Shown here: piece after piece, positions 39,927 to 63,589 of the stretch
Layout of the letters: each line of letters begins with the position of its first letter
How positions within the stretch are numbered: the stretch's first letter is position 1
DNA from: Clostridia bacterium
Lineage (GTDB): Bacteria; Bacillota; Clostridia; UMGS1883; UMGS1540
DNA length: 64,000 nucleotides
Direction: 5' to 3'
Assembly: GCA_045590195.1 (NCBI GenBank)
Contig: JAZNQN010000021.1
Span: forward strand, 1,352 to 65,351
The notes under the pieces: model-generated
The model's database searches: none
Seen by the model: only the letters and a program-made list of their open reading frames with translations
What the model was told of the DNA's origin: nothing
Translations under genes and position numbers: made by a program

Positions 39927-39940
39927 AAGATATATACGCA

Positions 39941-39967
39941 AAAAAGCACCCGATCGGGTGCTTTTTT
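39941..39967 (+). terminator. Rho-independent terminator of the rpiR-family gene
   Basis: aaaaagcaccc-gatc-gggtgctttttt. Confidence 0.8.
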
Positions 39968-39989
39968 ATGGCTTTCAAGTACGAAATAG

Positions 39990-40175
39990 ATGCAAGATAT
40001 TTTAGCTAAATTTTGCACATTCGTGCAAAGCGAAATTATTGCTCCGCAATAGCTAAATTGTTTCTTGCGAAACAGCTAAATTAAATTCGCCTTTAGCGTG
40101 TGTAGCACATTTAGCTGCCGCAGGCAATTTAGCTGAACTTGTTCAATTTAGCTCGCCGCCAGGCGAATTTAGCTG
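39990..40175. repeat. Array of 7 copies of the palindromic half-site AATTTAGCT (3 as AGCTAAATT, then 4 as AATTTAGCT), each followed by a short GC-rich palindromic spacer
   Basis: Copies at about 40003, 40051, 40074 (AGCTAAATT) and 40108, 40127, 40145, 40166 (AATTTAGCT). Reverse copies are spaced 18-21 bp apart. Spacers are gccgcaggc / gaacttgttc / cgccgccaggcg. Joined, the half-sites give the perfect palindrome AATTTAGCTAAATT. Confidence 0.6.
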
Positions 40176-40217
40176 AAAAAAAAGACAGATTTCTTTGTCG
40201 AAATCTGTCTTTTTTTC
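40176..40217. terminator. Bidirectional hairpin terminator (tRNA-Arg 3' side); part of a ~33-nt repeat also found at 61748
   Basis: aaaaaaaagacagatttc-tttgtc-gaaatctgtcttttttt, an 11-bp stem flanked by A8 and T7. Confidence 0.75.
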
Positions 40218-40294
40218 TGGCGTGCCTGAAGGGATTCGAACCCCTGACCTACTGGTCCGTAGCCAGTCACTCTATCCAGCTGAGCTACAGGCAC
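40218..40294 (-). tRNA. tRNA-Arg (anticodon ACG), CCA encoded
   Basis: The reverse complement GTGCCTGTAGCTCAGCTGGATAGAGTGACTGGCTACGGACCAGTAGGTCAGGGGTTCGAATCCCTTCAGGCACGCCA folds as a cloverleaf: acceptor GTGCCTG/CAGGCAC, anticodon loop CTACGGA, T-loop TTCGAAT. Confidence 0.9.
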
Positions 40295-54315: not shown

Positions 54316-57300
54316 TTATAAATCAAATTCTTCAGATAATGTAACGCTTCTCATATTTCTTTCCCATACAAAAACCTTGGCATACGATGCGTTGAGAATG
54401 TTTGATTTCGGCAAACAAAGGGTTGTTCCTTCTGCACTTAATGTTTTTGAAGTAAATAACAGCATTTGTCTGTATTTGTCATAAACTGCCACATATACAG
54501 CTGCATCTGAAACATAATCTTCAACAGATACATCAAAATACCAATTTAAACCATCTTCATTAAAATCAACGCTCATTGATTTTAATTCATTACCCTCTGT
54601 CAAGGTGTATGTTGCTGCAAAAATGTCACTATCATCTATTCCATCTTTTACGGCAATTGCCTTAATGGTGGTTAAACCTGTAATTTCAATCGGGCCGCTG
54701 TAAATGGCAGATGCTCTGCTTGGAACAGTGTTGTCTGTGGTATAGTGTATAACTGCACCGTCAGTTTCTGTTGTAAGCTCTACATATGTACCAACCGGAA
54801 CCGCTCCTGCAGTAGGCGATGCTTTCGGCTTAGCTGCCTTTTCAATGCTGTAAACAAATCCAGCCGTAGCACTGTCATTCATACCGGCTTTTACCGCATA
54901 TGCAATTATAAAAGTATCTTCTTCAACCGTAATTTCTCCGGTGTATCTGATTCTCGAGCTGCTTTCAACGATACACGGACATGTACCGTCAAGTGTATAA
55001 TAAATTTCTGCCCCGTCAGTTTCTGTTGATAAAGTTATTGTAGTTCCCCTCTTAACAGCACTGCCACTTGCAATATTTGCTTTAACTTTTGCACATGCGT
55101 TTGAAGTATCTGTTACATTTCCTACATTTGCTCTTGTTGATGATTTTATATCTGTTCCGTCAAGAGAAATTTCTATCGAGCCCTCACCCGGCAGCTTACC
55201 ACTCAGCATTACCAGCGCTTTTCCGTTTTCGTCAGTTGTAATGGTGTCGTTTACCACACCAACTATGCTCGGCGACATTGATTTTACAGAAAGTGTCTTG
55301 TTTGCTCCGGCCGATTTCGGCGAAACTGAAATTTCAAGCAATGTGCCCGAATTGTACAAAATATCAACGCTTGAAGCTACTACTATACTTTCAGGTCTTG
55401 CTCCAACAGTCTGTGACAGTTCCGATTTTCCTGACATGGTTTTACCTGCGTAATTCTTCACATTACTTATCTGTACTGCCACATCTTCTGCCAAAGTACT
55501 ATCCGGAATAAATTTAAATACAGATGCATACTTATTTACTTTTTTATAATCATATTCTGCATTAACCGGCTCGATTGTTCCTGCCACCATAGCACCACCG
55601 GCTGTAACTTTCACATTATCGACATTGACAGAATTTATATTCATATACTGACTAAAAATAATCTGAATTTCATCGTCATATATATTTACCGTTTCAACCG
55701 TCGGTGCCGATTTTGAAACAATTTCCGTATTTACTTCTGTTTGCGGAGGTGGAACAGGCAAATACCCATTTTCATCCGCCGCAACATCTTTTTTGGTATT
55801 AGTGTTATAATATCCTTCTTTAGAGAATTTAACCAGCCATTGACCTGCAGGCACATCCCAGTGGAACATACCGTTGACATCAGTGTACAAGGGATTTACC
55901 TGGTCATATTCATCAGCATTCCAGAAAATTTCTTCTTTAGCATCACCTGCTACTCCGAACTCATCCAGAGGATAATCATAGTAGTAACATTCTGCTTTTA
56001 CACCTTCAATTCTGTTTGAAGGAACTGCCTCATAAACATATCCTGATGGATCAAGAATATTTGGTGTCTTGAAGTTAGGTGTCGGCATTTTGTCTCCATT
56101 GCCTCCTCCGCCACCGCCATTCGGGCCGCAATTTTCACCCGGCTGACAAGGCTTACATTCAGGAGAACTATGGCCTGCCCATGTTGCTCTGTATATCTGA
56201 TGGTCAAATTTGAAAAGCCATAAATTAATATTCAGTAAATATGCAGCTTTAACTGACGCTACAATCTGCATGGCTCTGCCTAATAACTTCTGTAACGACT
56301 CCTCCCCGCATTTGCTCAGATTATCCAGAAGTTTTTCTGCTTCTTCGTTACCGGAGTTGCAAATTTCCATAATGTTGTCATAACAGGATTGTGCTGTTTG
56401 TAGAATGTTTTCCTGATTGTTTGAATATGGCCAGCATTCATTATTGGCTATGGCATCATTGAATTCCTGCATTTTTTGCTCTGCCTGTTCTTTGGCATTA
56501 TCGTACAAAAGCCCCAAAGGATCAAGTAAATCTATTATATCATCAAGCTCATAGAAAAGTTGAAAATCGCTATACAAATCCATCGACACCGCACTCTCAT
56601 AACGAACAGTTGAGAGTGTCTTTGTTTCAGAATCGTAAACTGTCTTGATAGTGTACCCCGGCATCGACTCTGTTTTCAAATAGATTTTTTCGCCGTTTAC
56701 AACCAAAATTTCTTCGTAGCTTCCGTCATTTTCAAAATTTTCAATAATCTCTGATGATACTGTAATGTATCTGTCTTCCAGCGAATTTTCTTTTGCAGAA
56801 ATTTTTATAGTTGCGCTTCCAATACCGTCTTCCGTGATACTGCTTTCTATCACATCGGCACTGAAATAATGCTCAATTACATCAATTGATTCTTGTGAAG
56901 GATTTTTTGCAACCTCTGCTTTTAAATCTGTAATCATCTGTTCATCTGCAATAAAAGGTCGCTCATCTTCGTAAACCATTTTATAATCAACAGCTATTTT
57001 TTGCGGAATTTCGTGCGATGTAAATCGGGCGTGCCCCAGCCACGAAAGCGTAACTTCATCATATATCATAGGAATTTTGCGTATTTCCCCGTCATTACCC
57101 TGCGTTACTACATATACGTCAGATAACACGGTATCATCGCCACCGGTAAATTCGACTCTAAAAGTAAAATCGGGATAATTAGGCCAATAAAGATACGCAT
57201 CTAAAGGTTTTGGATTTTTATAATCAATTTCAGTTACATATTCCGCAAGAGTCATTGTAGATGGCAAATGTGCCTGGTTTATCATCGTCAGCTTTGAAAC

Positions 57301-60300
57301 CTCAAAATATGAAGCATCGTAAATCAGCGGCATCTCATCGGTTTCAATTCTTTCTGTTCTATCTACTCCTGTTTTTTCGATTATTGCATAAATTTTATGC
57401 TGGGAATATGAATACGGTTTATCAAGCTCAATTTGCAGTGCCCATGTTCCTACCTTGTTGGCTTTTGTAGTTCCTACTTCAACGCCATTATCATAAACAG
57501 TAACCATACCTTCAGGCATCGTAAAGCCACTTATATAAACCCGCGTACTTCCTGTTTTTTCAGGAACAATAATCTTACTTGCACTTACCTCAATACTTGC
57601 TGTACCTATAGGCTGAATAGCGTTGCCCCCGTCATTATCAAGGCTTAAATATGCATCTATATTATAAGTATTCTTCTCAGTAGCATAAATATAAAATCTT
57701 ACAACTGCTTTATTGAGATCAGTTCTGATTTTTAACTGCCCATTTCCAAGACTATATGCAGTGCCTTTGCCGTTTATAGTAACAGAACCCGGCACGAAAG
57801 CAATACCATCCGGTATATCAATTGTTACCTCACGGGCAGAAAGTGTATATTTGGGATCAATTTCATATTCTGCACGCAGAACTATATACTTTCCGGTTGC
57901 CGCTGATGGAGTGTTGGCAGTAAATCCGGTGTTTTCAGGAAGAGTATAATAAAGCTTACTTTCATCAAAATCAGGAACAACAACACCGGATAATTCTGAA
58001 ATTTCGCCATTTTTAACCACTGCATTTTTTGTTACATAGTCAACATTTAAAACCAGTCCGAGTTCATCCATTTTACCAAGATTTGAAACTTTACGCAAAA
58101 CATTGTTTTTCTTTATGAATAAAAGCGTATAATCTCCGTTTTCAACTTCGTCAGTTTTTCCTGCGTCTTCCACCGTGTATGTTTTGATAAATTCACCACG
58201 AGAATCAAATATCATCATATAATTGATGTTGTTTCCGCTTATTTCCGATACTTCAATATGTCCGTTTTCAACAAATAAGATTTCACCGCTTCCCATCTTA
58301 TCAGAATTAAGAACTACCTCAACAGGATTTGCTGTCATCTTTTGATTTTCATCAGTTGCAGTAATCTCTACAAGATCACCTGCACTCACTTCATCTTCAC
58401 CAATGATAAGCTCATAATTTTGCACTTCAAAATTGGTAATTTCTTTATTTTTCGTTTTATTTTTAACTACAAAACTTATATCATCTATATCTGAAAAAGA
58501 AACTATATCTGCTGTTTCGCCGGCTTTTTTCGCCGCTTTTTTCTTAAATGTCAAAGAAATTTTATTTGACGGAAGTTTTGTAAGAGATATCTCACCCATG
58601 TTAATATTTTCCTGTTTTGTCTTTCCGTCAATTACAGTTACCGTTTTGCTACAATATCCCAAAGCAGACAGTTTTGCACTACTTGAAACATTTGAAACGT
58701 TGGCTGAATACTCGCCATTGATGTCAGTTGAAGTATTTACTGTCTTAGTATATTCATCATTATATTTCTGCGTAAATGTAATATCAGCATCTACAATAGG
58801 TTCTCCATCACGATTTTGAACTTTTCCTGTTACACAAACCGTATCTATTTTCTCAAGCTTACACTTAATGTCATAGTTGTTATCTTCTATAACAAGCTCC
58901 TCACGCAAATGCGGATAATATACGTATGACAATTCTTCGCCCAAAATAATCTCATATTCATACGTTTTATCATCTTCACCTGCAAATGATCTACCTGTTG
59001 CTATAGCAGTATCCGAGCCTTTTTCATACCAATTAACGGTATAATCTCCGGCTATTTCTTCGCCATTTTCATCAATCGGTGTTATAAATGCCATTCCCTG
59101 ACCTATATACCGGTACTTGATATTTCTTTCCTTTGCAAAGTTCTCTGCATAAGAGTCGGCATCAACAATCCATATTATATCGTCACATTTTTCAAATGCG
59201 CTTTCTTCTATCATTGTTACAGTTTCCGGTATATAAATGGTTTTAAGATTTGTACATCTTTCAAAAATTCCGTATTGGAGATATGTTATGTTATACGAAA
59301 GATTTACCTGGCTGAGTTTTTCGCAACCATAAAATGCAAGCGCACCCAATTCTTTAACACTGTCCGGAAAAGTTATTTCTTCAAGGCTCGTGCAACTATA
59401 AAACGCATTGCCTCCGATAGTTTCAGTATTTTCGCCAAATGTAACAGTCTTTAAATTTTTACACTCGTAAAATGCTGCATACCCAATCGACCCCACATTA
59501 TCAGAAACAGTCATACCGGTAATACCGCTAAAACCTGCAAATGCATAATCTTTGACTTCGCTCATACTGCCAGGAATAACGATATTATTTGTTAACACGC
59601 CGTTTATATATAATTCCTCAGCCTGAGAAAGCGGATTTGCTTCCGAACCTTCAAATGTGATTTTAAGCCATGATTCCAGGTCGTCTATATATACCTTTGA
59701 CAGTGAATTACAACTGCCAAAATTGTAATTATTTATTGAGGTTACACTTGAGGGGATATGTATCTCGGTGAGACTGCTGCATCCTTGGAAAACCGAATAT
59801 GGAATCGCTTTTAAACCGTTTTTAATAACCACCTTTTCAAGTCCACGGCATTTTCCAAAAGCACCTTCACCCAAGGCTGTACCCCCGTCAACTCCTTCTT
59901 TACCGCTATCATCATTTCCGGTAGTGCCCAAACTTCCGGGCAATGTAATTTCTTTAATGGAAGAACAACCGTAAAAAGCATTTCCACCTATGCTTTTTAA
60001 CCCCTCCGGCAGAATTATTTCATTAAGTTTTGAACATCCGTAAAATGCCGTATGGCCTATGCTTTCAATTTTATTTCCTATATCAGCATTTTCTAAATTG
60101 CTGCACTCCCAAAAAGCACTGTTACCTATACTTTTCACACTGTCAGGAATTGTTATATCAGTAAGATATTTGTATCCGTAAAAAGTATTTTTTTTAATTT
60201 CGGTAACAGTGTCCGGAACAGTTATATCAGTTACAAGCTCGTTTTCAATATAAAGCTTACATGCAACATCATTGCCTTCATCCAAAAGTGCAATTTCATC

Positions 60301-61545
60301 ATAGTTATAATGTTTTGCATTTAGCAAACAACAGTCAAATTCTATGCCGCACCACGCTTCAATGCTGGTTATATACACACTCTCAAGCTTATGATTCATT
60401 GGAAATGCATTATATCCAATCCTATTTACACTTTCAGGTATATGAACACTCTTCATCCCCGAAAAATTGCAAAATGCATTATTTTTAATCTCATCAGTTC
60501 CTTCCGGAATAACAATGTTTTCAGTAAGTACACCACCTATATATAACTCATCTGCCACATTCAATGGGTTTGAGTTTTCGCTTTCAAAATAAATACTGCA
60601 CCATGAAGCTACATTATCTATGTATACTTTTTCCAAAGAATAACACTGATAAAAAGCATAGTTTTCTGCTGATGTTACACTGGCAGGTATTGTTATTTCC
60701 TTTAAGTTATCACAACTTGAGAAGGCAGAAAAAGGTATTGCAGTTACACCGTTTAATATAACTGCTTTTCCCAAACCGGTACATTCTGTAAAAGAATTAC
60801 TGCCCCACACTTCAACACTACCCGGTATAGTAATTTCGCTAATACCTGTACATCCCTTAAATGCATTGCTTCCGATAGATTTAAGCGAATCGCCAAGGTC
60901 TAAACTCTTTAAGGAAGTACAATCGTAAAACGCATCGCCTCCGATAACTTCGAGATTATCACCAAAATTTATTGACTCTAACTCGGTATGTTCCCTGAAT
61001 GCTCTATCTGCTATTTCGGTCACAGTTTCTGGCAATGAATAACTGATAAGTTTTTTTGCATACGGAACCACCATGAGCTTTGTTATATTCTTATCAAACA
61101 AAATTCCGTCAATACTTTTTAAATACTGGCTATTTTCGTCAACGAGTATTTCTGTAAGATTCTCTGTTCCGTAAGAATCAAAACCGAATGTAGATCTTAC
61201 ATTTTCAGAAATTGTAATCGAGGTTACATTTGGAGCATAGAAAGAGCTGATTTCCACAACAGGATATCCAGCATATTCCGAAGGCAATATAATTGCTCCT
61301 GACAAAGTATCTGAAGATACAGATATCCCTTTACCTATCAGTTGCCAATTATCATCGTACACATCATAAAAAGAATATGCCGGATTCATTGGTTCTTCAG
61401 GCGTTGGTTCTTCCGGCATTGGCTCATCTGTTGTTATATCTCTACCTGTTTCTATATCATCATAAGTTTCTGCGAGGGAGCTAATCGGTATCATCGATAT
61501 TATTATAGATAAAATCAAAGCCATACTGATTATTCTTTTTTTCAA
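54316..61545 (-). CDS. Giant (~2410 aa) secreted surface protein with two blocks of BspA-type leucine-rich repeats (LRR_5), Ig-like/BIG2 domains and two chitobiase/hexosaminidase-C-like domains
   Basis: Start assigned to TTG 61543-61545 (MKKRIISMALILSIIISMIPISSLA signal peptide), 7 nt after AGGAGGTG. The ORF-track ATG at 61587 precedes the RBS. Repeats have the form IPxSVxxIGxxAFxxCxxLxxIxIP. GGGGGGNG linker. TDGAEIYYTLDGTCP and TDGAVIHYTTDNTVP domains. Confidence 0.8.
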   Translation of the reverse strand: MKKRIISMALILSIIISMIPISSLAETYDDIETGRDITTDEPMPEEPTPEEPMNPAYSFYDVYDDNWQLIGKGISVSSDTLSGAIILPSEYAGYPVVEISSFYAPNVTSITISENVRSTFGFDSYGTENLTEILVDENSQYLKSIDGILFDKNITKLMVVPYAKKLISYSLPETVTEIADRAFREHTELESINFGDNLEVIGGDAFYDCTSLKSLDLGDSLKSIGSNAFKGCTGISEITIPGSVEVWGSNSFTECTGLGKAVILNGVTAIPFSAFSSCDNLKEITIPASVTSAENYAFYQCYSLEKVYIDNVASWCSIYFESENSNPLNVADELYIGGVLTENIVIPEGTDEIKNNAFCNFSGMKSVHIPESVNRIGYNAFPMNHKLESVYITSIEAWCGIEFDCCLLNAKHYNYDEIALLDEGNDVACKLYIENELVTDITVPDTVTEIKKNTFYGYKYLTDITIPDSVKSIGNSAFWECSNLENADIGNKIESIGHTAFYGCSKLNEIILPEGLKSIGGNAFYGCSSIKEITLPGSLGTTGNDDSGKEGVDGGTALGEGAFGKCRGLEKVVIKNGLKAIPYSVFQGCSSLTEIHIPSSVTSINNYNFGSCNSLSKVYIDDLESWLKITFEGSEANPLSQAEELYINGVLTNNIVIPGSMSEVKDYAFAGFSGITGMTVSDNVGSIGYAAFYECKNLKTVTFGENTETIGGNAFYSCTSLEEITFPDSVKELGALAFYGCEKLSQVNLSYNITYLQYGIFERCTNLKTIYIPETVTMIEESAFEKCDDIIWIVDADSYAENFAKERNIKYRYIGQGMAFITPIDENGEEIAGDYTVNWYEKGSDTAIATGRSFAGEDDKTYEYEIILGEELSYVYYPHLREELVIEDNNYDIKCKLEKIDTVCVTGKVQNRDGEPIVDADITFTQKYNDEYTKTVNTSTDINGEYSANVSNVSSSAKLSALGYCSKTVTVIDGKTKQENINMGEISLTKLPSNKISLTFKKKAAKKAGETADIVSFSDIDDISFVVKNKTKNKEITNFEVQNYELIIGEDEVSAGDLVEITATDENQKMTANPVEVVLNSDKMGSGEILFVENGHIEVSEISGNNINYMMIFDSRGEFIKTYTVEDAGKTDEVENGDYTLLFIKKNNVLRKVSNLGKMDELGLVLNVDYVTKNAVVKNGEISELSGVVVPDFDESKLYYTLPENTGFTANTPSAATGKYIVLRAEYEIDPKYTLSAREVTIDIPDGIAFVPGSVTINGKGTAYSLGNGQLKIRTDLNKAVVRFYIYATEKNTYNIDAYLSLDNDGGNAIQPIGTASIEVSASKIIVPEKTGSTRVYISGFTMPEGMVTVYDNGVEVGTTKANKVGTWALQIELDKPYSYSQHKIYAIIEKTGVDRTERIETDEMPLIYDASYFEVSKLTMINQAHLPSTMTLAEYVTEIDYKNPKPLDAYLYWPNYPDFTFRVEFTGGDDTVLSDVYVVTQGNDGEIRKIPMIYDEVTLSWLGHARFTSHEIPQKIAVDYKMVYEDERPFIADEQMITDLKAEVAKNPSQESIDVIEHYFSADVIESSITEDGIGSATIKISAKENSLEDRYITVSSEIIENFENDGSYEEILVVNGEKIYLKTESMPGYTIKTVYDSETKTLSTVRYESAVSMDLYSDFQLFYELDDIIDLLDPLGLLYDNAKEQAEQKMQEFNDAIANNECWPYSNNQENILQTAQSCYDNIMEICNSGNEEAEKLLDNLSKCGEESLQKLLGRAMQIVASVKAAYLLNINLWLFKFDHQIYRATWAGHSSPECKPCQPGENCGPNGGGGGGNGDKMPTPNFKTPNILDPSGYVYEAVPSNRIEGVKAECYYYDYPLDEFGVAGDAKEEIFWNADEYDQVNPLYTDVNGMFHWDVPAGQWLVKFSKEGYYNTNTKKDVAADENGYLPVPPPQTEVNTEIVSKSAPTVETVNIYDDEIQIIFSQYMNINSVNVDNVKVTAGGAMVAGTIEPVNAEYDYKKVNKYASVFKFIPDSTLAEDVAVQISNVKNYAGKTMSGKSELSQTVGARPESIVVASSVDILYNSGTLLEISVSPKSAGANKTLSVKSMSPSIVGVVNDTITTDENGKALVMLSGKLPGEGSIEISLDGTDIKSSTRANVGNVTDTSNACAKVKANIASGSAVKRGTTITLSTETDGAEIYYTLDGTCPCIVESSSRIRYTGEITVEEDTFIIAYAVKAGMNDSATAGFVYSIEKAAKPKASPTAGAVPVGTYVELTTETDGAVIHYTTDNTVPSRASAIYSGPIEITGLTTIKAIAVKDGIDDSDIFAATYTLTEGNELKSMSVDFNEDGLNWYFDVSVEDYVSDAAVYVAVYDKYRQMLLFTSKTLSAEGTTLCLPKSNILNASYAKVFVWERNMRSVTLSEEFDL

Positions 61546-61667
61546 ATTAAGCACCTCCTGAAAATAAAAAATTATTTCATTGTGCAACCATAGAGGTTTA
61601 CTACTATTTTCCTAATCTTTGCCCCATTGGCTCTGTTCTATAGTATTCGCATATTATCCACAACCTT

Positions 61668-61696: not shown

Positions 61697-61752
61697 TCAT
61701 AATTTGTAAATTTTTTATTTAATGCTTTAACCTGCGTTAGCGAATTCAGCTA

Positions 61753-61786
61753 AAAAAAGACAGATTTCAATAAAATCTGTCTTTTT
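61753..61786 (-). terminator. Hairpin terminator of the 61825-63363 gene; second copy of the ~33-nt repeat seen at 40166
   Basis: aaaaagacagatttc-aataa-aatctgtcttttt. The 5' flank gcgaattcagctaaaaaaagacagatttc matches gcgaatttagctgaaaaaaaagacagatttc at 40163-40193. Confidence 0.7.
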
Positions 61787-61824
61787 CACGAAATAGCCAA
61801 ATGGTTTAGATGCCACTTCTACTC

Positions 61825-63363
61825 TTATAAATTTAACAGTTTTATATCAAATCTTCCGTTTTGCTTGAAATATCCTAAATTAAATATTTCTCCAGGATGT
61901 TTCTTTGCCCAGATTTTTGCTACTGTCTTTAATTCTTCAGCGGTAATCAATAGAATTTGTGTATCATTATTCAAAGAAAAATCAACACATTCTTGTATGC
62001 TTTGAGGTGTGAAATCAGGTGCAATTACCATAAACACGGTTACATCTTTATCTGATGTTTTTATGTATCTTTCAAACTGTTGAATGTGATCTTTTAAATT
62101 AACTGCTGTTTCCTTTGATTTATTATCCCACATAATATACTTATCTTTAAAGGATAATTTACCATCTGGATGTTCAGAACCGGTCAAAGTCAATGGCTTA
62201 TTTAATAACATTTTTTCAAACAAATAATTCGTTGCATCTTCAAATAAGTGTTCACATTGTAAATCTTTTTCAATGATATTATTTGCTCTCAGATTTTTCA
62301 AATCTCTATTTGCAAGTTGATTATAAAACGCAATAAGTTTTTCTCTTTCATCTTCCGTTTTAATTTCTATTCTTCTCATTGAATCATAGTATTCGAGAAT
62401 CCTATCAATTAACGCAACCTTATTCCCTGATACATTTAACCCAATATCACTACACCAAGCTGACAGCATTGTAACATCCAGTCCATCTCGTGGCGAAAAT
62501 CCACCGATTAAATTAGACGGTTGTATGGATTTCAAAATAATGTCTTTCAATTCGTTTACAGTAGGATTATTTGATATTTCAATTTTAGCTTTTGAAAAAT
62601 ATTGACTTGCTTTATTTACTATATCAATAAGATACTGTTTCTTTGTTTTCTTAACCACATAATCAACAAGTTTCTCATATCCATATGCTCGTATTTCAAT
62701 ATTATAATATTTTCTAATACATTGAGCTATATCGTCAGGAATCATATCACACATAACGCCATCAGAATTCTTTATCGCCACAATTAATCCTTTTGCTTGT
62801 AATACTTTTCTTGTATCTTCTATATCATCATAGGTGTGTAAAACATTTTCAGGAGTTGGAAATCTTCCTGATTTAGCTTCAAGCATATGAAACTCTTTAA
62901 TGGAAATCGACAAATACTTTCTTAGTGTTTCCAAAAGATTCTTCTCGTCAACTGAAATATCATCATTGTGCGCCCAAGCAGCATCTATCATATGCTTAAA
63001 CAGTGCAAAATCTTTAGATATTTTGCTTTCGTCAAAATTATTCGATTCATCAACAATAGATTTTTCATAGTTTAAAACCGCAGAATCAGTATCTTTGGTT
63101 GATGAAATAAAATCATCTTGATTTAACAAATAATCACGCAACAATATTGGTGCAATAATCCTAACTGCACGATTTGAATCAAGTTTAATTTCTTCTAATC
63201 TATTGCTAATATTATCGAAAGAAGTATATTGATTTGCTGTTTTCTTTAAAAAATCTTTGATCTCATCAAACTCTAATCGTCTATAATCGGCAACATAAGC
63301 AGAAGCAACTCTCTTTGCTATTGTAATATTAGGAATTTGTTCAACAAATTTAATAAAATCCAT
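61825..63363 (-). CDS. Orphan SAP/HeH-motif protein with C-terminal PD-(D/E)xK nuclease-like signature (candidate defence/restriction-like nuclease)
   Basis: Start set to ATG 63361-63363 (MDFIKFVEQ), 8 nt after GAGGTGG. 513 aa. SAP-like DGLDVTMLSAWCSDIGLNVSGNKVALIDRILEYY. C-terminal CEHLFED ... EHPDGKLSF ... IMWDNKSKE (E / PD / DxK spacing). Markedly AT-rich compared with neighbours. Confidence 0.55.
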   Translation of the reverse strand: MDFIKFVEQIPNITIAKRVASAYVADYRRLEFDEIKDFLKKTANQYTSFDNISNRLEEIKLDSNRAVRIIAPILLRDYLLNQDDFISSTKDTDSAVLNYEKSIVDESNNFDESKISKDFALFKHMIDAAWAHNDDISVDEKNLLETLRKYLSISIKEFHMLEAKSGRFPTPENVLHTYDDIEDTRKVLQAKGLIVAIKNSDGVMCDMIPDDIAQCIRKYYNIEIRAYGYEKLVDYVVKKTKKQYLIDIVNKASQYFSKAKIEISNNPTVNELKDIILKSIQPSNLIGGFSPRDGLDVTMLSAWCSDIGLNVSGNKVALIDRILEYYDSMRRIEIKTEDEREKLIAFYNQLANRDLKNLRANNIIEKDLQCEHLFEDATNYLFEKMLLNKPLTLTGSEHPDGKLSFKDKYIMWDNKSKETAVNLKDHIQQFERYIKTSDKDVTVFMVIAPDFTPQSIQECVDFSLNNDTQILLITAEELKTVAKIWAKKHPGEIFNLGYFKQNGRFDIKLLNL

Positions 63364-63589
63364 ATTATACCACCTCGAAGATATTATATCATAATAAGCA
63401 TAAATTGTCAAAAGAAAAACCGAATGATAAAGACATGGCATCTAAATCATTCGGTTTCTATGGCTTCCCTCGCTCCTTATTTTCTCCGAATTCGCCCTCG
63501 TTTCATCTGCCACCGGCAGCACTCGGCCTCATTCCAGTTAACAGCCGCTGCGGCTGTTTTGCGAAAGCTTTGATTAAAGTTCAAATTAA

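Follow-up and report, generated by a model that had tools for sequence, protein, structure and literature searches.

The 64-kb stretch of the Clostridia bacterium contig JAZNQN010000021.1 analysed here (the window, in whose positions all coordinates are given) carries an array of 9-nt linkers and small hairpins between rpiR and a tRNA-Arg gene. This array is the body of a 245-bp non-coding insertion (39973-40217), which lies exactly past the tRNA-Arg CCA end and has TGGC on both sides. We consider it somewhat probable that the insertion is a mobile hairpin-array element, that its arms form a single-strand binding platform for a cognate pentamer of a four-helix-bundle (4HB) protein, and that the window copy is an orphan of this element.

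An insertion at the CCA end of tRNA-Arg

Unlike the window, a near-identical strain (locus L218), which encodes the closest RpiR homologue (98% identical), has nothing between the rpiR terminator and the tRNA-Arg 3' end, and it is this comparison that identifies 39973-40217 as a discrete insertion. Specifically, L218 reads …rpiR stop…AAAAAAGCACCCTGTTGGGTGCTTTTTT-A-TGGC-GTGCCTGAAGGGATTCGAACC, with the rpiR terminator abutting the tRNA-Arg 3' end and also serving tRNA-Arg, whereas the window has 249 extra bases in the arrangement TGGC / TTTCAAGTACGAAATAGATGC… array …GTCTTTTTTTC / TGGC-GTGCC. The TGGC present once in the empty site stands at both junctions of the filled one, on the left (39969-39972) as the reverse complement of GCCA and on the right (40218-40221) as the encoded 3'-terminal GCCA of tRNA-Arg. 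This 4-bp direct repeat may stem from duplication of the target, or one copy may be an end that the element carries next to a fixed GCCA target, and TGG(C/T/A) stands at both ends of the element in other loci. An insertion in the window and a precise loss in L218 both fit these data, and both imply a discrete, movable unit. Additionally, the full 245-bp unit, its left-end segment and terminator included, is 80-88% identical to copies at unrelated loci in other species, and several array loci occur per metagenome-assembled genome (MAG). A preliminary description of this region had proposed looking for conservation at the same tRNA locus; the unit is indeed found elsewhere, but at unrelated loci of other species, and the near-identical strain has none of it. 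RpiR relatives at 67% identity show a different gene order. At a locus whose RpiR is 84% identical (L219:1160-1510), tRNA-Arg follows rpiR in the opposite orientation and is followed by a segment of ~180 bp between direct copies of the tRNA 3' end and terminator (…CCCTTCAGGCACGCCA + AAGAAACACCCAxTGGGTGTTTTTTT, twice), apparently a separate small insertion or duplication at this tRNA.

Within the insertion, eight 9-nt linkers are arranged as four of the AGCTAAATT type, a 26-nt centre and four of the AATTTAGCT type. AATTTAGCT or its complement occurs exactly seven times in the window against 2.3 expected, and none of 100 shuffles reaches seven. Six of the seven exact copies fall inside 40004-40174, three in the minus-strand reading (40004, 40051 and 40074) and three in the plus-strand reading (40126, 40145 and 40166), and two linkers are degenerate, namely CATTTAGCT at 40108 on the plus strand, with one mismatch to AATTTAGCT, and AGCGAAATT at 40029-40037. 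The array had been described before as seven half-sites, three and four; its position and coordinates stand, but AGCGAAATT had been missed, the fourth plus-strand copy carries the mismatch, and the true layout is 4 + 4. Linker starts are 25, 22, 23, 34, 18, 19 and 21 bp apart, close to the earlier range of 18-24 bp but for the 25-bp step and the 34 bp across the centre. As had been noted, the spacers are self-complementary, each being a different small palindrome (TTGCACATTCGTGCAA, ATTGCTCCGCAAT, GTTTCTTGCGAAAC, GTGTGTAGCAC, GCCGCAGGC, GAACTTGTTC and CGCCGCCAGGCG), and either strand of the array folds far better than shuffled sequence (z-scores -6.5 and -8.1). The 14-bp palindrome that results from joining two half-sites has no evident role.

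From left to right, the element starts with segment X (TTTCAAGTACGAAATAGATGCAAGATATTTT, 39973-40003, plus strand), whose conserved core TAGATGC (39987-39993) lies 10 nt ahead of the first linker and recurs at the same distance (~10 nt) in about 15 other elements; the motif is also found after element terminators in tandem or nested arrangements. X is missing from the empty site of L218, which indicates that it arrived with the element. It was also examined as a decayed tRNA-Arg 3' end and rejected as such, with identity of only ~50% (14/28, manual alignment) and its absence from the empty site. The left arm (40004-40082), whose putative sense strand, that reading AATTTAGCT, is the minus strand, holds linkers at 40004, 40029, 40051 and 40074 and hairpins at 40013-40028, 40038-40050 and 40060-40073. 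In the centre (40083-40108), AAATTCGCC TTTAGCG forms a degenerate fifth sense copy, and after it comes the central hairpin GTGTGTAGCAC with a GTA triloop (40098-40108). The right, tRNA-proximal arm (40108-40174), with the plus strand as putative sense strand, has the hairpins GCCGCAGGC, GAACTTGTTC and CGCCGCCAGGCG between its linkers.

The last linker copy runs directly into a hairpin with a 17-bp stem (40177-40216), as had been seen before, and this hairpin belongs to the element's own bidirectional intrinsic terminator (40175-40217; G, A8, 17-bp stem, 6-nt loop, T7, C), an inverted repeat that is missing from the empty site and conserved with the array in other species. This terminator now ends tRNA-Arg transcription, and a plus-strand transcript of the array could also end at it. 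On the other side, outside the element, lies the pre-existing bidirectional intrinsic terminator of rpiR (39940-39967), a perfect 14+14 inverted repeat between A6 and T6. Both this terminator and the neighbouring tRNA-Arg had been recognised correctly; the latter (anticodon ACG, minus strand, 40218-40294) is called by ARAGORN and scores 64.5 bits with the Rfam tRNA model, and the element begins 1 nt past its CCA end.

The second copy of the terminator-bearing repeat reported earlier is present as well, at 61734-61786, with a near-identical terminator in the same orientation, downstream of the minus-strand open reading frame (ORF) 61825-63441. It forms part of a truncated element on the plus strand (61734-61814), comprising a hairpin remnant with AATTCAGCT (61734-61751), the terminator copy (61752-61786) and the X motif GGTTTAGATGCC (61803-61814); the window thus holds one full copy and one fragment. 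Directly downstream of the fragment is a 2423-aa ORF on the minus strand (54316-61587). At 63400-63460 on the minus strand, a terminator-like hairpin (AAACCGAATGA…TCATTCGGTTTTT) has a further X motif (TTTAGATGCC) in its loop and is immediately followed by a perfect TTGACA-17-TATAAT promoter. The ATG taken as the start of ORF 61825-63441 lies inside this hairpin, and the true start is therefore probably further downstream.

The array family in Clostridia and its relation to Gut-1

Three ATTTAGCT copies separated by 8-15 nt were sought in one genome of each prokaryotic species, which gave at least 119 loci. Among the matches listed, 100 of 119 are hairpin-type arrays, all from MAGs or isolates of Clostridia. 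The bearers include Ruminococcus, with the isolate Ruminococcus sp. JL13D9 (NZ_CP162392, locus L065) as an example, Oscillospiraceae, Acutalibacteraceae and Faecousia, among others, mostly from rumen and gut. All 16 non-Clostridia matches among those listed are plain tandem repeats without hairpins, and of 18 matches on viral contigs three are true arrays and 15 plain tandem repeats. Searches of the literature for the 9-mer returned primers and unrelated sequences only, and tRNA was the sole match to phage records.

A composite design is common to 70 loci, the window included: three to four units of AGCTAAATT plus hairpin, the centre, three to four units of AATTTAGCT plus hairpin, and a larger hairpin, which is often a bidirectional terminator. 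The centre is conserved in these 70 elements as AGCTAAATTAAATTCGC…AGCG/T plus hairpin. Genomic contexts are diverse; no fewer than 13 arrays directly adjoin a tRNA 3' end (Leu, Val, Met, Pro, Arg or Thr) or that of transfer-messenger RNA (tmRNA). The number of units per arm peaks sharply at 4-5, varying from 1 to 5 in the left arm and holding steady at 4-5 in the right, and arrays of one orientation reach 13 units. Such long one-orientation arrays occur in L038 (13 units), L014 and L022, and at L141:1555-1800 a 4HB gene is followed at once by nine one-orientation AGCTAAATT-hairpin units with a terminator behind them. Right after a 10-unit array, at L014:6245-6270, there is a near-consensus parS-like palindrome (TGTTTCACGTGAAAT). 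Short arrays with the linkers AGTTATATT, AGTTATGAATT and AATATAACT adjoin AATTTAGCT arrays at L051:1262-1335, L054:1950-2000 and L015 (~2420-2480), and since they stand in the same locus, several linker classes coexist in one genome.

Whereas the linker is constant across the family, the spacers vary (~7-22 nt across the family, 9-16-nt palindromes in the window) and covary as hairpins. At least three end-to-end Watson-Crick pairs are found in 201 of 334 distinct spacers, compared with about 7 in shuffles. Per slot (R1-R3 and L1-L3), 90-100% of the distinct sequences pair at positions 1-3 with three to four pair types, exceeding all 500 partner shuffles, and RNAalifold reports many compensatory changes. 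Motif statistics and hairpin covariation together rule out chance or a plain tandem repeat. The hairpins also carry a strand signal. Read on the strand of AATTTAGCT, the loops fall into the classes GNA (57), GNRA (18), other GNNA (~26) and also CTTG, with the reverse-complement classes almost absent, and there are 23 G·T pairs as opposed to about 5 A·C pairs when one slot-R1 loop position is left aside (10 A·C with it), a bias that holds in both arms. These statistics show the hairpins of each arm to be, by all appearance, optimised on the AATTTAGCT-reading strand, with the arms apparently read on opposite strands that diverge from the centre; by the same rule, the plus strand would be the one read in the window's right arm and the minus strand the one read in its left arm. 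There are 96 triloops against 61 tetraloops, and wobble pairs are rare; such a profile is no less like that of stable DNA mini-hairpins than like that of typical RNA. Folding alone also predicts a ladder of four-way junctions pairing AGCUAAAUU with AAUUUAGCU, whose linkers are invariant; this ladder was set aside in view of the unequal arms (1-5 left units against 4-5 right units) and of one-orientation arrays of up to 13 units.

At gathering score, Rfam finds nothing but tRNA in the window or in 18 AATTTAGCT loci. The only meaningful match below threshold is Gut-1 (RF01706), whose threshold is 50 bits and which scores 19.3 bits on the minus strand (40104-40175) and 17.4 bits on the plus strand (40050-40144). 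Gut-1 was described as a candidate non-coding RNA from human-gut metagenomes only, with no function given and neither mobility nor a protein partner reported (Weinberg et al. 2010, PMC2864571). Its consensus has three hairpins separated by GUGAAAU, and its seed alignment (PMC2864571, supplementary Gut-1.sto) reads as a tRNA 3' end, a terminator, C, four units of AGUGAUAUU plus hairpin, a centre (…AAAGCGAAUAUAAUAUCAC) and AAUAUCAC plus hairpin. The Rfam model covers one arm only. The AATTTAGCT arrays share with Gut-1 short covarying hairpins, a constant A/U-rich linker, an inverted second arm and an origin in gut Clostridia, and the hairpin GCCUGCGGC is found both in the seed and in AATTTAGCT arrays. 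The window copy likewise has at least three short covarying hairpins with a constant linker and a second inverted arm, and it follows the tRNA-Arg terminator as Gut-1 follows a tRNA or gene terminator, but its linker is AGCUAAAUU rather than GUGAAAU or AGUGAUAUU, to which its low model score is attributable. Moreover, in five loci (L145, L144, L182, L143 and L201), Gut-1 matches that pass the gathering score have a tRNA on one side and a 4HB gene on the other. The comparison thus presents the window array as a linker variant of the same kind of element as Gut-1, and shows the Rfam motif to be this element family's version with another linker.

Four-helix-bundle proteins beside the arrays

In nine genome loci, an ORF starting MAESIML… begins 18-45 nt past the left arm, in the sense direction of that arm. 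It belongs to TIGR02436 / PF05635, annotated as "four helix bundle protein" or 23S rRNA intervening-sequence (IVS) protein, and the closest solved homologues of the 4HB protein, 2RLD and 2GSC, have five chains each. At L104, two 4HB genes occur, one of the MAESIML type beside a AATTTAGCT array and a 48%-identical paralogue whose neighbouring array has the same design but the linker TATATCGCA. When metagenomes were scanned with an alignment of these proteins, 80 loci were obtained, and a comparison of their upstream regions revealed the same two-armed design, in which the linker follows the protein subfamily. In particular, all 12 genes of the MxESIML subfamily are preceded by AATTTAGCT arrays, whereas the linker is AATATCACT in the SxLRDKSKEFAKQIV subfamily, AATTTCACT in the MESRLLNNAKDLAV subfamily, AATATAACT in the SIIREKAKEFAKNIV subfamily, ACTTCACT in the SKLRxQSxDFAV subfamily, GCTTCAT in the NDKLAEQSM subfamily and GATTTCAT in the AENKLADLST subfamily; the xSPLLxKSKAFALEIIKVCN subfamily has contiguous TTCACT-type heptads without hairpin spacers. 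Protein identity is 79% in same-linker pairs and 57% in different-linker pairs, a difference reached by none of 2000 permutations. Linker sequence is thereby shown to change together with protein subfamily, as far as these alignments reach. At 33 or more of 60 4HB loci, a co-directional tRNA ends 150-330 nt upstream, and the junction between tRNA and element reads CCA-(G)-A-run.

The xSPLLxKSKAFALEIIKVCN subfamily is the largest (L152-L165, L187, L192 and others), and its two inverted arms of contiguous heptads (…CTTCACT ATTCACT…) lie about 150-250 nt upstream of the 4HB gene, around a terminator-like hairpin and directly after the tRNA CCA. At L036:4330-4730 and L104:5290-5685, the 4HB gene is followed by a homologous, membrane-protein-like ORF of ~130 aa (MKK…IIAIVWLVTIILSFYIGM…), which may be cargo of a longer element, and then by an X'-like motif (GCCATCTAAATCGTTCAC); X' was considered as a constant end after the 4HB gene and dismissed, being present in some loci only. 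Among 46 ORFs downstream of 4HB genes (1.2-kb flanks), 54 unrelated Pfam families were matched, none more than twice. At L144:1109-1300, some 440 nt beyond the 4HB gene on its downstream side, there is a tandem pair of c-di-GMP-I riboswitch aptamers (48 and 50 bits). Literature searches on the 4HB protein family returned nothing on arrays.

We propose that an arm, when single-stranded, would fold out its hairpins and present four to five single-stranded AT-rich linkers, the single-stranded state being either RNA (whether as 5' leader of the mRNA for the protein or as a short transcript to the flanking bidirectional terminator) or transiently unwound DNA. The cognate pentameric 4HB protein would then bind the linkers, one per protomer crevice, by analogy with the way Avd binds its RNA; the 4-5 units per arm stand alongside pentameric proteins. 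In gene-bearing elements, the gene-proximal arm lies in the mRNA sense and its end is 20-45 nt ahead of the start codon, so that the protein may plausibly regulate its own synthesis through the 5' leader. The other arm would have the sense of a transcript that converges on the tRNA and stops at the bidirectional terminator of the element. Each arm of the window copy would run into such a terminator, the right arm into 40177-40216 and the left arm into 39940-39967. With no 4HB gene beside its array, the window copy appears to be a non-autonomous orphan that keeps the cis sites, to which a protein encoded at another genomic locus would bind in trans. Such orphan copies may provide extra binding sites or may merely be cis sites kept for propagation, and binding itself could serve autoregulation, a decoy function or mobilisation.

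Several observations weigh against this proposal. The 64-kb window encodes no 4HB gene, and only ~14% of AATTTAGCT arrays adjoin one. Gene and array may have been inherited together, which could account for the association of linker with protein without any recognition, and the classes overlap, with proteins up to 79% identical having different linkers. The contiguous heptads of one subfamily, which have no hairpin spacers, could equally suggest binding to double-stranded DNA, and Rfam orients Gut-1 on the strand opposite to that favoured by the loop and wobble statistics. A consensus scan finds no sigma-70 promoter in the centre or the array. As to mobility, the empty site comes from one strain pair and could be explained by precise loss rather than gain; no reverse transcriptase, integrase/recombinase or transposase recurs beside the module among the 46 downstream ORFs and 1.2-kb flanks; and we know of no catalytic activity of the 4HB protein.

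The preliminary description had offered a small structured RNA gene as one explanation, which would match the Gut-1 annotation. In its full form, a free-standing small RNA (sRNA) of the Gut-1 type would be transcribed on one strand through both arms to the element terminator and act alone or as a sponge for an RNA-binding protein unrelated to the 4HB gene. In favour of it, Rfam lists Gut-1, the sister motif, as a covarying candidate sRNA, terminators working both ways flank the array, both strands fold strongly, and the X end has a conserved promoter-like pattern (TTTAGA or AATAGA, followed after 15-17 nt by the TAAATT of the first linker), represented in the window by AATAGA, 16 nt and TAAATT (40007-40012), which would read into the array, although the consensus scan does not call it. 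However, the strand signal points to opposite strands for the two arms, with the G..A loops and G·T pairs divided accordingly, and a single transcript would hold one arm in the disfavoured orientation; the excess of triloops and the rarity of wobble pairs are unusual for RNA families; and the adjacency of arrays to 4HB genes and the covariation of linker with protein would be left unexplained. We judge such an sRNA unlikely. Another explanation, which suits the small loops, is an element that acts as single-stranded DNA, like repetitive extragenic palindromic (REP) sequences and bacterial interspersed mosaic elements (BIMEs) or palindrome-associated transposable elements (PATEs), and is moved by an HUH transposase (IS200/IS605 TnpA or RAYT-type) encoded elsewhere, with the 4HB gene as frequent cargo. 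GNA triloops such as GCGAAGC, which dominate among the loops, form unusually stable DNA mini-hairpins, and insertion directly 3' of a fixed GCCA, with the same tetranucleotide at the other end, recalls the fixed tetranucleotides that serve IS200/IS605 elements as target and cleavage sites; the intergenic sites beside terminators and the multiple copies in some genomes also fit. Yet REP and IS200-type ends have conserved, recognised hairpins, whereas here the hairpins vary and the linker is invariant, and IS200/IS605 ends act on one strand, whereas the two arms have opposite functional strands. With no such transposase seen beside any module, and the covariation of linker and protein again unexplained, this origin is distinctly improbable.

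A cluster of sites on double-stranded DNA for a nucleoid, partition, replication or transcription factor, bound on one helix face, could draw on the short invariant motif, its occurrence in both orientations with a spacing of roughly two turns, and the contiguous heptads of the related subfamily, which resemble arrays bound by ribbon-helix-helix proteins. The spacing nevertheless ranges over 18-34 bp here, the spacers over ~7-22 nt across the family, and the spacers have been selected as covarying hairpins with strand-specific stable loops, needless for duplex binding; no rep, par or regulator gene is consistently adjacent. The nucleoid, partition or replication protein invoked in the preliminary description therefore finds little place, and we hold duplex binding to be very unlikely; the likely binder would be the single-strand-binding 4HB protein suggested by the alignments. 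Scarcely credible is an attachment (att) site of a phage or island at tRNA-Arg, with the 9-mers as arm-type sites of an integrase or excisionase and the copy at 61.7 kb as the other att. The array does adjoin a tRNA 3' end (or that of tmRNA in other loci), terminator and motif are directly repeated 21.5 kb away, and three arrays lie on contigs classed as viral; but the empty site shows insertion of 245 bp only, the 21.5 kb between the repeats lie on the wrong side of the tRNA and hold the housekeeping genes asd, dapA and dapB, GH42 and SLH proteins, no integrase was found nearby, and identity to the tRNA amounts to 4 bp. An island of 21.5 kb between the two terminator copies is ruled out by this gene content and geometry.

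Beyond the proposed single-strand platform itself, we tentatively raise a broader possibility, about which we are rather doubtful: that 4HB proteins of TIGR02436/PF05635 are sequence-specific single-strand binders which, together with their cognate linker-hairpin arrays, of which Gut-1 would represent one arm, would constitute an unrecognised class of small mobile elements that home to the encoded CCA ends of tRNA and tmRNA genes, bring their own terminator, spawn orphans and move by a non-canonical route, possibly dependent on single-stranded DNA or cDNA. The present locus ties together Gut-1, unexplained since 2010 and found in metagenomes only, and the 23S rRNA IVS protein family. It assigns Gut-1-type arrays to Oscillospirales-like Clostridia as discrete insertions at tRNA CCA ends, and it accounts for the recurrent "repeat region" and extra terminator annotated beside tRNA genes in gut and rumen MAGs. 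The hypothesis of recognition between pentamer and linker is testable, as matched protein and linker classes exist for swaps.

Comparison with known systems

Some familiar array types differ from the element in basic design. CRISPR arrays have repeats of ~21 nt or more and unique non-palindromic spacers of similar length, whereas here a 9-nt repeat alternates with palindromic spacers of 9-16 nt in two inverted blocks. Iterons and partition centromeres are poorly matched by a spacing of 18-34 bp and by the neighbours rpiR, tRNA-Arg and GH42, and integrase att sites by a 245-bp non-coding insertion with housekeeping neighbours and 4-bp identity to the tRNA. The element comes closer to miniature inverted-repeat transposable elements in its presence/absence polymorphism with precise boundaries between close relatives (L218), in similar copies at unrelated sites and in a longer gene-bearing version; its ends (TTTCAAGTACG... 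and ...GTCTTTTTTTC) are not complementary, and its internal arms are inverted in their linkers only, so that terminal inverted repeats are missing.

Like REP/BIME, BOX, RUP and Correia elements, the element is dispersed, non-coding, palindrome-containing and modular, lies in intergenic regions beside terminators in both orientations and is polymorphic between strains. What is conserved in REP sequences is the hairpin, to whose GTAG head RAYT binds, whereas here there is no conserved palindrome with a head tetranucleotide: 334 distinct spacer hairpins vary and covary around a 9-nt linker that is invariant across families of bacteria. Insertion also occurs at one precise position after the tRNA CCA, and the gene-bearing versions encode a 4HB protein and not a transposase; no RAYT or Y1 transposase family recurs beside the modules, the genome here being represented by its 64 kb only. 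The earlier idea of a dispersed REP-like, terminator-associated repeat family thus holds for the dispersal and for the terminator in the repeated unit, but not for the REP-like character.

With sponge RNAs such as CsrB and RsmZ, which bind an oligomeric protein that also binds its own and other mRNA leaders, the arrays have in common a short single-stranded motif that is repeated many times, between small hairpins or on them. There is no relationship in sequence or protein, however, and here the arms appear to lie on opposite strands, the element is probably mobile and binding is a proposal. In the 23S rRNA IVS elements, a small 4HB gene (PF05635) likewise lies in a structured inverted-repeat insertion at a stable-RNA gene, but here the insertion is downstream of tRNA/tmRNA genes and not inside rRNA helices. 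To our knowledge, a repeated linker-hairpin array has not been described for IVS elements, and the very large IVS protein family has been assigned no role outside its structural relative Avd in diversity-generating retroelements (DGRs).

The DGRs differ from the element in using one stem-loop instead of multiple tandem linker-hairpin units in two inverted arms, and no reverse transcriptase occurs among the 46 downstream ORFs, a survey of 1.2-kb flanks only in which template/variable repeat (TR/VR) pairs were not searched. On the other hand, Avd is a positively charged pentameric barrel described as similar to the S23 ribosomal (23S rRNA IVS) proteins, and it binds an RNA stem-loop via equivalent inter-protomer crevices, with flipped-out bases held between protomers (bioRxiv 10.1101/2023.10.23.563531). 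DGR targets, in turn, need a GC-rich hairpin of free stem sequence with a 5'-GRNA loop on one strand (PMC3240598). Both features have a counterpart in the arrays described here, the 5'-GRNA loop being echoed by their G..A loops and Avd by the IVS family protein (PF05635/TIGR02436) encoded beside them.

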